Positions 10,693 to 16,375 of a DNA stretch of 18,463 nt are shown here, piece after piece. Numbering within the stretch: the first letter of the stretch is position 1; each line of letters opens with the position of its first letter. The position numbers and the translations under genes were made by a program. Source of the DNA: Promethearchaeota archaeon (GTDB taxonomy: Archaea > Asgardarchaeota > Lokiarchaeia > Sigyniarchaeales > SOKP01); contig RDOA01000001.1 in the NCBI GenBank assembly GCA_011364925.1, positions 191,137 through 209,599 on the forward strand. The letters run 5' to 3'. A model generated the notes under the pieces. It had not been told where the DNA came from, did not search any database, and worked only from the letters and a program-made list of their open reading frames with translations.

Positions 10693-11070
10693 TTAAGCAA
10701 ATAGTTCAAGAAAATATCCTGCTATCCCAAAAAAATCTAAATCGTCTAGATTCTCTGTATTTCCCTTTAGTTTTAAGACTATATTTTTATCTGAATCGTA
10801 TATTGTTCCCTCTTCTTTTGAAAATTCGTACAATAGACCTCCGCCTTGGTAAGTAAATATTTTTCCATTTTCCAAACGACCTTGTTCGTCGCCATCACTA
10901 TAAGTTATGACGCCATCTTCCCGGAGGATTAACAATAGATCTGCTCCTTGATAAAAATTATTGCCATCCAGATAAGCTACTAACTTCTTTTTTCTATTCA
11001 AGTATTCCTTTCCATTAATGTATCCATCAATTTTATCTTTCTTAAACCTATAATTATATACTTCAATCAT
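10693..11070 (-). CDS. Hypothetical beta-hairpin-repeat protein (beta-flower/Tubby-C-like)
   Basis: About five 16-18 aa Gly/Asp-turn hairpin repeats followed by a hydrophobic C-terminal helix (DFFGIAGYFLELFA). Start is ATG 11070, or TTG 11085 as in the track. Confidence 0.7.
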   Translation of the reverse strand: MIEVYNYRFKKDKIDGYINGKEYLNRKKKLVAYLDGNNFYQGADLLLILREDGVITYSDGDEQGRLENGKIFTYQGGGLLYEFSKEEGTIYDSDKNIVLKLKGNTENLDDLDFFGIAGYFLELFA

Positions 11071-11164
11071 ATTGATTTCAACCAATATTGTAACATTTAC
11101 AATAACGTTAATTATTATGATTTACCTTTAAATTTTTATATTTGATTGAAAGTAGAAAGAAATC

Positions 11165-11197: not shown

Positions 11198-11944
11198 TTA
11201 CTTAATTTCAGATCCACATAAAGCACAGAATCGACCTAATCTAGATAATTCTGCTCCGCAATTTGGGCAAAATTTAATTTTAGAGTCCTGATCCAAAACT
11301 ACAACTTGGGGCTTAGGGGTTTCTATTTGCTGTTCTTGCGCCTTAGGAGCATCAAAGATCGACAACTTGTTTAAAGTTGCTAGTTTAAAGTATCCCTTGA
11401 CTTGATAAATAAATCCAATAATTGCAGGTACGATTAAAAACCCAAGGGAAGTTAAGAGAGCACCTGTTCTTAATTTTTCACATCCTTTAATTGCTTCGCT
11501 TGAGACTTGTGCTGGAAACATTTCGTTGTTATTTTCAAAAAACATTTTCAGATTTTTCCACGCATTCATTTCAGCAGCGACTCCCACATATACAAACACG
11601 ATTCCCGATATCATAAGAACTACAGATAACGAGAGCGTGAAATAGAAAGGGAACGCAGATGGAATAAAGAAAAACAGTACTAAATTAGCAACTCCAGTGA
11701 GGAGGATGGCCATACCCGATATTTTTGATATGAACCCTCTGATATATCTCGAGCGAAATTCTTGTAGCGACGAGTTATTTAAAGAGTAGTTTGCTCTTTT
11801 AATACACTTTAAAGCAACGAAGATAAAAATTAAAGCGATTAAACCAGCAATCCCCGTAGCTAAGCTCACTATAGTTAGGATTGCGCTGACTTGTATAAAT
11901 TTCCCAAAATCATGGAATTCTTTATTAACACTTGTATTTGACAT
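11198..11944 (-). CDS. Multi-pass membrane protein (DUF973/DUF996-like) with C-terminal zinc ribbon, paralog 1
   Basis: Several hydrophobic helices. C-terminal FCPNCGAELSRLGRFCALCGSEI carries two CxxC motifs. Confidence 0.8.
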   Translation of the reverse strand: MSNTSVNKEFHDFGKFIQVSAILTIVSLATGIAGLIALIFIFVALKCIKRANYSLNNSSLQEFRSRYIRGFISKISGMAILLTGVANLVLFFFIPSAFPFYFTLSLSVVLMISGIVFVYVGVAAEMNAWKNLKMFFENNNEMFPAQVSSEAIKGCEKLRTGALLTSLGFLIVPAIIGFIYQVKGYFKLATLNKLSIFDAPKAQEQQIETPKPQVVVLDQDSKIKFCPNCGAELSRLGRFCALCGSEIK

Positions 11945-12134: not shown

Positions 12135-13514
12135 ATGTCTTTCATAAAAGCTAAACCTAATATCGTAGAGAATTATACCCTTTTTGTTATTCCTAGTTGG
12201 GGCCATTTACTTGGTTATCCAACTTTGGGCACATACTCTAACCAAAGTGTTTCGAAAATATCTCAAGACCTTGTTGTCTTTTTTGGTGCAGCTGATTCCT
12301 CTGTTCTAACAGAGAAAGGAACTCTCTACTACTTATTTGGCTTAGGTTATTACTACACCAAATTTGAACTCCAAAGTGGGAGATACATTACGGACAACCG
12401 ACAATTAACAGGTTTAGTACTTTCGGATTTTGTATACGATTATCTTGCAACCTCAAAAAATGTAACTTTAGAGGATGATCGCGATGTAATAGTGAGTGAA
12501 AATCTCTTCAGAGTTCCATTAGATTTATCTTTCAAATCTGAAAATAAACGCACTTTTATTCAAGGAACTCTTATGAGGAATTTATTTATTCCCTACAAAG
12601 ATGTTTTTCTAGAGTTTATGGAAAATCTAAAACATCCAAATTTCCTACAAGTATATAAAACCGGACCAATCCTTCTAAGCACAGATTGGGATTCTTACAA
12701 TCAAGTATTACTCTCTTCTGATATGCGTGGTGATAATAAAGCAAATTTCGTAAATCCAACTGCAGGAATAAATAAAATAACATTTGACTCTAAAAAGCAT
12801 TTGGAACGCTTTTACACAATCAAGGATTTGAAGTTTATTGAAGATTTGATATTGAATCTTAAGGAAGTTTATTCTATGATTGATTACGATCCAATGTATT
12901 TGTTCTCGATATTAATTAATGCCTCATTAAAATTGAGACCAAGAATAAGCCTTTCTAGGGCTCAAAAGAGTAGTAAACCAAAATACAAAATGCCAAAGGA
13001 ATCAGCGTTTCTTTCTGCTGAGGAAAGAATGGATGCTTTTGTCGATTGGCCAGAAACATTCAAAAGGAAAACGAAGAACGAGCTTGAGAAATCTGTTGTT
13101 CGTGTAGAGTCTAAACTATATCAACCAAAAGAAGAAGATGAAGAAACTCCAAGTGTACCAATTTTCCGAGAAGAACAAAAGGAATTTAAGATTAGAACTA
13201 TGAAACGCCCAAAAGTATTCGCTAAACAGCTTCCAATCATTCCAACGAGTAATTCACTAGAGATTCTTCTCGTAATTAAGGAGATCGTTAATCAAGATTA
13301 TGACATTCGATCAATCGCAAGAGCTCTTGAAACTGCTAGAGATTATATTAAAAGCATGATACTTCATTCTAATGTGTTATGGGAAATGAGTAAGTATGTT
13401 AACCTCTACATGAAGGTCGAGCCTAATGTAGGATTAAGCTCTAGAGAAAAGGATGAATTAATGGAACAAATAGAAAGATGGATTAATTTAATAAGTAAAA
13501 TAAAATCAATTTAA
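12135..13514 (+). CDS. Hypothetical protein: globular N-domain, charged linker, C-terminal four-helix bundle (Vps28-CTD-like)
   Basis: Long ORF with ATG at 12135 or TTG at 12126. The CDS itself is secure; the domain assignment is tentative. Confidence 0.75.
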   Translation: MSFIKAKPNIVENYTLFVIPSWGHLLGYPTLGTYSNQSVSKISQDLVVFFGAADSSVLTEKGTLYYLFGLGYYYTKFELQSGRYITDNRQLTGLVLSDFVYDYLATSKNVTLEDDRDVIVSENLFRVPLDLSFKSENKRTFIQGTLMRNLFIPYKDVFLEFMENLKHPNFLQVYKTGPILLSTDWDSYNQVLLSSDMRGDNKANFVNPTAGINKITFDSKKHLERFYTIKDLKFIEDLILNLKEVYSMIDYDPMYLFSILINASLKLRPRISLSRAQKSSKPKYKMPKESAFLSAEERMDAFVDWPETFKRKTKNELEKSVVRVESKLYQPKEEDEETPSVPIFREEQKEFKIRTMKRPKVFAKQLPIIPTSNSLEILLVIKEIVNQDYDIRSIARALETARDYIKSMILHSNVLWEMSKYVNLYMKVEPNVGLSSREKDELMEQIERWINLISKIKSI

Positions 13515-13527
13515 ATGGTGGTTTGTT

Positions 13528-14160
13528 ATAGTCAATTTTAAGTCAATTATTAAAGATTTACAAAAGCATTATTCTGACGCAACAGAAGTGGTTGTAATCA
13601 ATAATAAAGCGAAAGTTCTTTACTCCACTAGTAATTGGAATGTAGCGAAAGACATTAAAGGATTACTAGCCAGCTGGAGTAGTGGTAACGCTCAATCTGT
13701 GAAAATGAATGATATAAGATTCTCAGTACTTCAAATGGAACCCGAACGATTCATAGCTACTAATAGACAGAAAAAGGGTCATCTAGTAGGTTCATCCATT
13801 CCTGGAACTGATATGTATCTTATTGCTCACATAAAACCAAAAGCTAAAGCTTGGGAGCATATGGCTTATCCTGCTATCGCAAGGGCGGCAGCAATGATGA
13901 GAAAAGGTTCAAAATCGCAATTTATGGAGACTGAAGTAGACACTTCTAACGATGGCGAGCTCGCTCAAGTTAGTAGTAGAATGGCGCAACCGTCAATTGA
14001 TCCATACCTCAAAGCTGAATTGGACAGTTTCTTAGGCTGGATGAAAGATCCTCAAGGTTTACCCTATTATCTTGATTATACTTTACAAGAAAACGATCCA
14101 TACAAAATTTCCAAACTTGCAGAACTTTATAATGAATTGTATAGAATTTTCTATACTTAG
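13528..14160 (+). CDS. Asgard (Loki-type) profilin domain with C-terminal helical extension; probable ATA start at 13528 (track start is GTG 13588)
   Basis: (I)VNFKSIIKDLQKHYSDATEVVVINNKAKVLYSTSNWNVAKDI...SVKMNDIRFSVLQMEPERFIATNRQKKGHLVG...YLIAHI...YPAIARAAAMM matches the recalled Loki profilin pattern (TxNW, S-h-x-h-x-x-I-K/R-Y/F, ER-x-I-x-TN-x3-KGH). Confidence 0.8.
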   Translation: MVNFKSIIKDLQKHYSDATEVVVINNKAKVLYSTSNWNVAKDIKGLLASWSSGNAQSVKMNDIRFSVLQMEPERFIATNRQKKGHLVGSSIPGTDMYLIAHIKPKAKAWEHMAYPAIARAAAMMRKGSKSQFMETEVDTSNDGELAQVSSRMAQPSIDPYLKAELDSFLGWMKDPQGLPYYLDYTLQENDPYKISKLAELYNELYRIFYT

Positions 14161-14171
14161 GAGTTGACTTA

Positions 14172-14408
14172 ATGAATATGAATTGTATTCATCGTGGGAT
14201 AAATCTCTTGAGAATTTTTAGGGATGATTTGACTTCGCCAAAATTTTGTCCTTCATATGAAGTGGAAATTCCGCCTGAAGAGCCGAAGGAGATAATGAAC
14301 AAATGGATTTATCGTTTGGCATTAGCCTTTATTCTTATTATTATATTAGGAATTCTTTTTTGGGTAATACAAGGTATAATCAAATATTATTACCGAGTAT
14401 TTTACTAA
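14172..14408 (+). CDS. Small single-pass membrane protein
   Basis: AGGAG ribosome-binding site at 14159-14163 overlapping the profilin stop. One TM helix, LALAFILIIILGILFWVIQGII, and two N-terminal Cys. Confidence 0.65.
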   Translation: MNMNCIHRGINLLRIFRDDLTSPKFCPSYEVEIPPEEPKEIMNKWIYRLALAFILIIILGILFWVIQGIIKYYYRVFY

Positions 14409-14432: not shown

Positions 14433-15200
14433 TTAAATTTTCGAACCACAGACTTGACAGAATTTACCTCCTTTATCCAATTCTGACCCACAATTAGGAC
14501 AAAACTCTTTTATCTCTGTAGTATTTATTTCCGGTTGCCCAGCTACAGATAGAGGAGCCTTAGGTGTTGTTTTTTTCATTTGCGGCTCAGTTTGTTCGTA
14601 GTACATCAATTCGCTCAATTTAGCTAGTTTGAAGTAACCAACGGCTTGGAATATCCAACCAATAATGGCAGTAATTATAAATATCCCCAGTGCCCATAAT
14701 AAAGCACCAGTTCGAAGTTTATCGCACCCATCAATTAATTCGTGCCTTAGATGTTCGGGGAATAATGACTTATTCGTCATGAAAAAAATTCTTAGGTTTT
14801 CCCATGCTTTCATCTCAATTGCAGAGCTTACAATAAAGAGTATGACTCCAGTTACCATCCCAGTGATCGTTATCGGAAGACCTATAACCATAAACTCATA
14901 AGTAACTGGTGGAATTCCTAAAGATATACCAAGGACGATTGCCCCTCCAAACAAAAGTATAATACCAAATATCACTAATACAGTTGTTCGGATATAATTC
15001 TTCCTAAAATTTTGAAGGTTTGAATCAAACAATTGATAATTGATAGCTTTAATATCTCCAAGCGCCGAAAAAATAAAAATAATTGCGATTAAACCCGCGA
15101 ATGGTGTTATTGGAGGAATTAATGCTAATACCGTCGCTACAGCCGCTGTATGCATGTGTTTTCCAAACTGGTAAAATTGAATTGTAGTGTTGTTTTCCAT
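14433..15200 (-). CDS. Multi-pass membrane protein (DUF973/DUF996-like) with C-terminal zinc ribbon, paralog 2
   Basis: Shares GC(D/E)KLRTGALL, EMxAWxNLxxFF, GYFKLA and FCPNCG...FCxxCGS with 11198..11944. A GGTGA ribosome-binding site lies at 15207-15211. Confidence 0.8.
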   Translation of the reverse strand: MENNTTIQFYQFGKHMHTAAVATVLALIPPITPFAGLIAIIFIFSALGDIKAINYQLFDSNLQNFRKNYIRTTVLVIFGIILLFGGAIVLGISLGIPPVTYEFMVIGLPITITGMVTGVILFIVSSAIEMKAWENLRIFFMTNKSLFPEHLRHELIDGCDKLRTGALLWALGIFIITAIIGWIFQAVGYFKLAKLSELMYYEQTEPQMKKTTPKAPLSVAGQPEINTTEIKEFCPNCGSELDKGGKFCQVCGSKI

Positions 15201-15454: not shown

Positions 15455-16375
15455 TTAATCTGAGTGAGCAGAGATGATTAAATCTGCAAAAAGCTTCATA
15501 TCGTTAAGTAAAACGTTCAATTTGTCTTGAGAATCTCTGTCTAATTCTTGCGACTTCATGACAAATACTGAGATGATGTATTTAAAGATGTGAAGTTCGA
15601 TTCCCTTCCCATCATCACTTTGTCCCATAAATCGGCACGAATCGGACATGAAGATATTCTCTCTAACTGTGTTCGCTGCGTCGATGAAATCTCGCAAATC
15701 GCCTCTAAGTGTCAAGCCACTACTTACTCCTTGAACGTTATGAACTAATACATTTCCAGATACGTCGGAAATTATTATCTTAGCTTTAATTTCTTCAAGT
15801 TGGCTTTCAGCTTTTTCTACAGAAGCTTTCAAGTCCTTGTAAGAAGAAATTAATAAATCTCGAAATACTTTAGCTAATTCGTCCTGTTGATAAATACTCG
15901 TCAATTTTAAATCAAAATCGTAATCTTTAAACATGTCAGAAAAGATATCCTTAGCACTCTTAACGTTTGTATCCAAGAGTTCCTTGGGATAATCTTCAGT
16001 GTCGTATTTATGCAAGAAAAGTAGAACTCTGGGTTTCTCGTTGTTTTTCCTATGAATATCTAGTAATCCTTCAAAATATTCTTTCGCTTGATTGAAGGAA
16101 TCCGGATCGTGTAAATCTACAATGCAGATCAATATATCAGTACCTTTGAAAATCTCGGGTTTTTCCATATATTCCTTTCTGTATTGTTCTTGACCTCCAA
16201 AGTCAAATATTCCGACTTGAAGTCCTAAAAATGGGTGTCTTCTCGTTTCATAGAGGATTGTGGGGCTTAATTTTTTAGTGTCTTCTGGTTTTTTTTCGGC
16301 AAAAGCGACGGAATACAAACTAGTCTTACCACATCCTCCAAGTCCTACAAGAGATATTTTAATAGTAAATTTCAC
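15455..16375 (-). CDS. Rag/Gtr-like small GTPase with C-terminal roadblock-like domain
   Basis: G1 GLGGCGKTS, G2 SPT, G3 DFGGQ, G4 HKYD and G5 TSIY; HKxD and TSI are Rag-type. The last about 120 aa show an alpha-beta-beta-alpha-beta-beta-beta-alpha pattern. Confidence 0.85.
   Translation of the reverse strand: MKFTIKISLVGLGGCGKTSLYSVAFAEKKPEDTKKLSPTILYETRRHPFLGLQVGIFDFGGQEQYRKEYMEKPEIFKGTDILICIVDLHDPDSFNQAKEYFEGLLDIHRKNNEKPRVLLFLHKYDTEDYPKELLDTNVKSAKDIFSDMFKDYDFDLKLTSIYQQDELAKVFRDLLISSYKDLKASVEKAESQLEEIKAKIIISDVSGNVLVHNVQGVSSGLTLRGDLRDFIDAANTVRENIFMSDSCRFMGQSDDGKGIELHIFKYIISVFVMKSQELDRDSQDKLNVLLNDMKLFADLIISAHSD

Follow-up and report, generated by a model that had tools for sequence, protein, structure and literature searches.

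The locus studied here raises the question of whether three closely spaced genes of a Promethearchaeota archaeon, encoding a Vps28-like protein, a profilin and a small membrane peptide, form a functional unit. [quoted passage not shown] We find that the first two open reading frames (ORFs), ORF1 and ORF2, are an old, conserved two-gene unit of soluble proteins, and that ORF3 is a recent, lineage-restricted local add-on outside that unit. The probable explanation, in our view, is a co-transcribed soluble pair, in which a tail-targeted profilin would act on actin monomers and a Vps28-C-type adaptor would serve the same broad process, with ORF3 as a passenger. This explanation and its rivals overlap in part. 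The labels used are G for a genome (G000 being that of the window), C for a contig, L for a locus stretch and g for a genus; the family is one Lokiarchaeia family, and the relatives are its other genomes. The features of the locus are as follows.

12135..13514, + strand: ORF1, a soluble two-domain protein of 459 amino acids (aa)
12147..12959, + strand: ORF1 N-terminal domain (aa 5-275), mixed beta/alpha
12960..13241, + strand: ORF1 linker (aa 276-369), low-confidence and partly disordered (pLDDT < 50 at 277-296 and 325-355)
13242..13505, + strand: ORF1 C-terminal four-helix bundle (aa 370-457), divergent and Vps28-C-like
13515..13527, + strand: spacer of 13 nt, with a GGTGG resembling a Shine-Dalgarno (SD) site and an out-of-frame ATG
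13528..14160, + strand: ORF2, a tailed profilin of 210 aa counted from ATA
13528..13905, + strand: ORF2 profilin domain (aa 1-126), net charge +10
13993..14154, + strand: ORF2 tail, a 55-aa helical domain after a variable linker of about 30 aa
14172..14408, + strand: ORF3, a peptide of 78 aa with a single transmembrane (TM) segment, 11 nt after ORF2

Conservation of the ORF1-ORF2 pair and the position of ORF3

The family holds 52 ORF2 orthologs, of which 2 lie at contig edges, leaving 50 that can be assessed. ORF1 stands directly upstream of ORF2, on the same strand, in 35 of these 50 genomes, which belong to genera g1, g12, g13 and g15, and the identity of the paired ORF1 proteins spans 44-74%. 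The flanks of the pair vary. On the upstream side there may be a DUF973 zinc ribbon, a proteasome-type ATPase or another gene; downstream, a convergent DRG GTPase or Rag GTPase is commonest (about 10 each; Rag 9), and others occur. A quick tree groups all 31 ORF1 rows that stand next to a profilin in a single clade (SH-aLRT 87), to the exclusion of every non-adjacent row, long forms and other short forms alike; the pairing thus arose once and was then kept. Within this clade it is ORF1, more than ORF2, that depends on the neighbourhood. Co-transcription of the two genes is likely. A prediction of the ORF1-ORF2 complex scored 0.00 in a run that had no controls, and we use it neither for nor against an interaction.

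A serious rival, if on the whole a somewhat unlikely one, is that the two genes share an inherited neighbourhood only, their functions being unrelated and ORF2 being kept in place by its use of the ORF1 promoter. The single origin of the pairing fits this account, as do the several genomes (L002, L013, L017, L019) in which ORF1 was cleanly lost and ORF2 retained, and the convergent, non-operonic GTPase neighbours that are likewise kept within sub-clades. It fits less well that ORF1 is upstream at 35 of 50 loci when any downstream neighbour reaches at most about 13 of 49, that the pairing holds over four genera down to 44% identity, and that no profilin-less member of the adjacent ORF1 clade was found.

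The co-orientation of the three genes and their short gaps (13 nt with the ATA start, and 11 nt), as initially described, are confirmed by the ORF coordinates, and so are the SD-like sites, GGTGG preceding ORF2 and AGGAG overlapping the ORF2 stop ahead of ORF3. The end of the 16S rRNA of G000, GATCACCTCCT, is compatible with both, and GGTG is retained at the spacer position in many ORF2 orthologs. Conservation of all three genes as a unit, without which the initial annotation would count its proposal as refuted, does not hold: co-conservation extends to ORF1 and ORF2 (35/50) and stops short of ORF3, which follows ORF2 at 0 of 49 assessable loci of other species, with no co-directional hydrophobic or membrane ORF replacing it. 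A genome search in 40 relatives gave no match to ORF3 better than E 0.006, and among 5.8 billion proteins it has 2 homologs, both at the same locus of near-identical genomes (ORF1 and ORF2 about 90% identical). The ratio of nonsynonymous to synonymous substitution rates (dN/dS) of ORF3 is 0.84 and 0.48, from few changes, vs 0.16 for ORF1 and 0.09 for ORF2, which marks it as weakly selected, and its codon score falls at the 5th percentile of real genes.

The single hydrophobic helix ascribed to ORF3 is present (KD19 2.87). The membrane-tethered complex of three products, with ORF3 as its anchor, is nevertheless very improbable. The 11-nt gap and strong SD site ahead of ORF3 speak for it, and the ORF3 frame survives a 6-nt deletion in the sister species, its TM half being nearly invariant. 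Set against this are the absence of ORF3, or of any substitute TM gene, at all 49 loci of other species, the restriction of its homologs to two near-identical genomes, its dN/dS of 0.5-0.8 as compared with 0.09-0.16 for the other two genes, and its codon score. ORF3 was the sole anchor, and we looked for a TM segment in ORF1 and in ORF2 and found none; once ORF3 is excluded, the conserved unit therefore has no membrane anchor. Such a complex could survive only as a species-specific innovation, and the membrane-anchored three-gene version should be dropped.

As to the origin of ORF3, it carries traces of CxxCG and KFCPxC motifs, of which each copy keeps just one or two cysteines. Against a zinc-ribbon model it scores 12.9-14.7, where the null has a 95th percentile of 11.0 and a maximum of 17.8 and where the model held two sequences found with ORF3 itself. 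It resembles the small Loki proteins with a double zinc ribbon and a TM helix (L063, L065, L084) in size, in its C-terminal TM helix and in the motif traces, and differs from them in its remaining cysteines, so that the match is merely suggestive; as a hint only, ORF3 may be a decaying gene of that kind. Its 3' half (window 14298-14408) shows zero synonymous changes relative to the sister species where about 4-5 are expected; this could come from recent recombination, or from a signal at the nucleotide level that serves the convergent gene. The unit is flanked on either side by a DUF973-like membrane protein that ends in a zinc ribbon (window 11198-11944 and 14433-15200, both on the - strand). 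The two are paralogs, 42% identical, and in other genomes they stand in tandem upstream; this layout points to a local rearrangement that also brought ORF3.

Elsewhere in the window, a 130-aa protein (10693-11085, - strand) has weak beta-flower Pfam matches (E 0.007). Pfam and NCBIfam scans of the three ORFs gave zero matches, repeat searches and Rfam found nothing, and a sigma-70 promoter and terminator scan, a model ill-suited to archaea, remained at chance level.

The two domains of ORF1

ORF1 has 448 homologs, the named ones being Lokiarchaeota or Promethearchaeota, and is the short form of a Loki family that includes coiled-coil forms of 600-800 aa; G000 has a paralog on contig C33. The AlphaFold model shows two domains joined by a disordered linker. 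The C-terminal bundle finds its best structural match in yeast Vps28-C (2j9u; Z 11.5, a value inside the range for unrelated helical bundles; root-mean-square deviation (rmsd) 2.1 over 88 aligned residues, 9% identity), the next fold reaching Z 8.7. A repeat search placed three Vps28-C entries, from yeast and Xenopus, on top (Z 11.2-11.6, rmsd 2.1), and Foldseek gave a probability of 1.00 with a TM-score of 0.72 normalised by the target. Because helical bundles match easily, support was also sought in sequence. A direct scan of ORF1 with PF03997 is negative; in G000 that family finds the real Vps28, on C64, and, on C21, a protein of 797 aa. A profile built on the ORF1 bundle finds full-length, single-copy matches in other Asgard families, mostly proteins composed of a coiled coil, a linker and the bundle; a Thor protein of similar make-up was matched to 2j9u by Makarova et al. 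(PMC10936438). The same profile matches a stand-alone gene of 106 aa (E 1.3e-5; hhalign 83.8%) that sits in another Asgard family between an E2/UEV-Vps23-Vps28 fusion and Vps22, within a complete ubiquitin-ESCRT cluster. This cluster (L172:2953-10195), in which Pfam misses the separate 106-aa Vps28-C-like gene, has an arrangement described in the same paper (PMC10936438).

The profile, when widened, also aligns with a PF03997-positive PCI/UFM1-ligase family (hhalign 93.6%, E 2e-7, score 40.7 vs a null maximum of 20), and reaches 2% with Loki Vps28 proper. Against the Loki Vps28 families the narrow profile is insensitive, its positive control itself giving 3.5%, and only the widened one is informative. 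A sequence search of the PDB with the bundle profile returned 2j9w at E 0.21 only. In the PCI-type family a D-x-E in helix 4 aligns with Q/K-I-E/D in ORF1, a position that may correspond, in human numbering, to the Vps20/CHMP6-binding patch. In human Vps28-C that patch is formed by F206, D207 and E209 (PMC4772496). A match of the bundle to sigma-70 region 4 (E 0.015 over 25 residues) was rejected as a short helix-pair match unsupported by the fold model.

Taken together, the structural match and the transitive links support the Vps28-like domain initially assigned to ORF1 as a divergent homolog, though PF03997 is silent: the bundle is a Vps28-C-like domain, its sequence homology being indirect, through intermediates. 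ORF1 is not a Vps28 ortholog, because it has no steadiness box, its N-terminus being a beta-rich domain of 270 aa. It shares with eukaryotic Vps28 of ESCRT-I (2j9u, 2j9w, 2g3k) the four-helix bundle (Z 11.2-11.6, rmsd 2.1, 88-89 residues) and departs from it, beyond the missing steadiness box and PF03997 match, in its identity of 8-9% and in the presence of a real Vps28 in the same genome. It comes closer to the multidomain Vps28-C proteins of Asgard archaea, a described class (Makarova et al. 2024, PMC10936438; Liu et al., 10.1101/2020.10.19.343400), in which the bundle is likewise C-terminal after a linker, outside the ESCRT cluster and patchily distributed. From the examples given there it differs in its partner domain, which has no known fold and is not an adaptin appendage, longin, TPR, Ig, PCI or BAR domain, and in the pairing of its gene with a profilin gene. 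Its architecture may already be drawn in Figure 6B of PMC10936438. G000 has further weak Vps28-C-like C-termini at C12:1076-3082, C38:154108-156285, C38:98396-99040 and C27:18156-20135, two of them on proteins with a TrmB-type helix-turn-helix (HTH) and a coiled coil.

The N-terminal domain, folded alone (AF2, 70 sequences), gives a pLDDT of 93.8 and a pTM of 0.91. Its best match to 48,161 chains has a Z of just 2.4, and no fold match was found in the PDB, the PDB-wide VIA or BFVD, including with Foldseek, which does not prove a new fold. An apparent likeness to outer-membrane beta-barrels (ESM Atlas feature score 0.92) was rejected, with 112-122 shared features and TM-scores of 0.16-0.19. Of 251 Asgard genomes 123, from 14 families, have the domain; in proteins labelled Heimdall, Hod and Hermod it comes after an N-terminal helical part, and no bundle is joined to it. 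Well folded, present in about half of the sampled Asgard genomes and with no solved relative, it is a good target for structural genomics.

ORF2: profilin domain, tail and start codon

That ORF2 is a profilin-domain protein, as initially annotated, is upheld by matches to solved Asgard profilins, both of its family profile (5zza_P, E 2.5e-20; 7pbh, 3.7e-18; 5yed, 3e-15; 6yrr, 1.2e-4) and of the single sequence (E 2e-8). Pfam PF00235 gives no match to ORF2, nor to the canonical Loki profilin on C20. The three-strand motif of ORF2 aligns without gaps with 5zza and 7pbh. Residues W37, S66, E73, R74, G84, H85, G88 and R119 are kept in 41-42 of 42 family sequences, and the W, S, ER, TN and GH..G positions common to the actin-binding Odin and Loki profilins are nearly invariant. 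The position aligned to the predicted lipid-binding lysine of Odin and Loki profilin (PMC8410842) is R or K in 42/42, given an inferred numbering offset. ORF2 is thus like the known Asgard profilins (5zza chain P, 7pbh, 5yed/5yee, 5zzb, 6yrr; Akil and Robinson 2018; Survery et al. 2021, PMC8410842) in its full domain, core motifs and basic lipid-binding position. It is unlike them in its C-terminal extension of 80 aa (linker and 55-aa helical tail), in having no Loki loop, in a two-residue insertion and the loss of an acidic residue in the C-terminal helix, and in its non-canonical start and operon partner.

Among the 353 homologs of ORF2 the named ones are, again, Lokiarchaeota or Promethearchaeota. 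G000 itself encodes a second tailed profilin (an ORF2 paralog, on C44), the canonical one on C20 and further profilins. A 444-aa protein with an N-terminal profilin domain lies directly downstream of a second actin gene (381 aa) at C32:44319-46831 (L085). Behind the tailed profilins of the other clade (G000 C44:10568-11116; L020, L022, L148, L149), and behind the g5 orthologs, come small zinc-binding genes (CxxC...H) that all belong to one family; this is a second conserved profilin neighbourhood.

Every genome of the family (61/61) has the tail domain, as has every one of a sister family (4/4). Among 185 other genomes there were three borderline matches only, none convincing outside the order, and Pfam and the PDB gave zero matches. 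The usual genome of the family has two tailed profilins and one stand-alone tail protein of 55-65 aa. In G000 this tail-only gene (C22:45217-45420; L082:3218-3421), which is present in most family genomes and too small for many annotations, lies about 8 kb from an actin-family gene. Ras-like GTPases of G015 and G004 carry the tail as a fusion, too; they lie at L146:181-1239 (- strand) and L147:514 onward (+ strand) and have a degenerate P-loop.

These fusions bear on another account, in which the tailed profilin has lost actin binding and works as a GTPase adaptor of roadblock or longin type. Profilin, roadblock and longin have a common core fold (PMC10933270), the profilin gene often has a convergent Rag or DRG GTPase gene next to it, and the separate canonical profilin on C20 is also in its favour. 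We nonetheless find this account improbable: hardly any variation is seen at the W, S, ER, TN and GH..G positions or in the three-strand motif, which is reported to touch actin, and the GTPase neighbours sit on the opposite strand. In the window a Rag/Gtr1-like GTPase (15455-16375, - strand) is extremely conserved (dN/dS 0.005); nine relatives have it right next to the profilin, in convergent orientation.

Several observations support the ATA start of ORF2: the first 20 codons show conservation and are coding by codon score, residues 1-20 align with orthologs having ATG in the same start column, and three other genomes (L003 and L005 with ATA, L002 with ATC) likewise have no in-frame canonical start. 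The exact start is slightly uncertain, since the sister species L072 has one G fewer, so that the ATG immediately behind the stop codon of ORF1 falls into frame and gives an ORF2 of 214 aa. The start column (13528-13530; L002, L003, L005, L018, L132, L136) drifts between ATG, ATA, ATC and ACG, with alternative starts nearby in some genomes. A possible explanation of the drift is tolerated non-canonical initiation in Loki archaea.

Possible roles of the pair

The Vps28-C-like bundle raises the question of a direct tie to ESCRT. One might speculate that ORF1 and ORF2 form a direct complex, in which the bundle docks on ESCRT-II and the N-terminal domain or linker holds the profilin tail, so that actin monomers are supplied to ESCRT sites. 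The tight, conserved pairing agrees with this, as does the bundle homolog found between Vps23-Vps28 and Vps22 in the ESCRT cluster of another Asgard family. ESCRT-II Vps22/36 is present in 25/25 relatives, and direct binding of Vps28-C-bearing proteins to ESCRT-II has been proposed (Makarova et al. 2024, PMC10936438). Against it, the Vps22/36 gene and the pair lie on separate contigs in 17 of the 17 genomes where both were located, several other Vps28-C-like proteins of G000, some of TrmB type, make the domain promiscuous, and the profilin is frequently found without ORF1; we consider such a complex unlikely. A stronger version, also unlikely, would make the pair a dedicated actin-ESCRT link in Loki archaea: the adaptor, its N-terminal domain being of a new fold, would recruit the tailed profilin, and actin monomers would thereby reach membrane sites shaped by ESCRT, for example the necks of protrusions or vesicle buds. 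In G000, rated 100% complete, no Vps22/36, Vps25 or clear Vps4 was found, a gap that is probably an unassembled ESCRT cluster.

In the explanation that we prefer, the co-transcribed soluble pair, the transcription unit would have arisen once in one Lokiarchaeia family and been inherited since. As with other Asgard profilins, the most likely ligands of the ORF2 profilin domain are actin monomers and acidic lipids; behind the domain, on a flexible linker, comes a small portable helical tail that probably directs ORF2 to a partner or site; the tail is read as a targeting module because it also stands alone and on Ras-like GTPases. ORF1 would be a soluble adaptor of the Asgard multidomain Vps28-C class, whose Asgard-specific N-terminal domain is likely to recognise a cargo or partner and whose bundle may dock on ESCRT-II or another helical partner. 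Most likely the two proteins are expressed together and act in the same broad cytoskeleton or membrane process, and ORF3 would be an incidental recent passenger, providing no anchor for a conserved complex.

Several points weigh against this explanation. ORF2 occurs without ORF1 in 15 of the 50 genomes and in the sister family; the long ORF1 forms, the other short ones and the C44-type tailed profilin are never paired; the 35 genomes, given the single origin, do not count as independent cases; and a common promoter could be enough to hold both genes together. The identity of the bundle to Vps28 is just 9%, its Z score is one that unrelated bundles also attain, PF03997 is negative on ORF1, and actin binding by the tailed profilin is predicted from homology.

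Profilin and Vps28-C are known families of Asgard eukaryotic-signature domains. Our literature search found no description of tailed profilins, of the ORF1 architecture or of the ORF1-ORF2 pair, its coverage of profilin reviews being incomplete and the novelty of tailed profilins not fully checked. In Asgard archaea no nucleators or profilin recruiters are known, and how actin regulators are positioned is an open question (PMC9433394). A tailed profilin kept beside a Vps28-C adaptor offers two concrete soluble proteins with which a link between actin and ESCRT can be tested. Tailed profilins also occur, there without an ORF1 partner, in complete genomes of the order (G032, G038), and the family may thus perhaps be testable in cultured strains.

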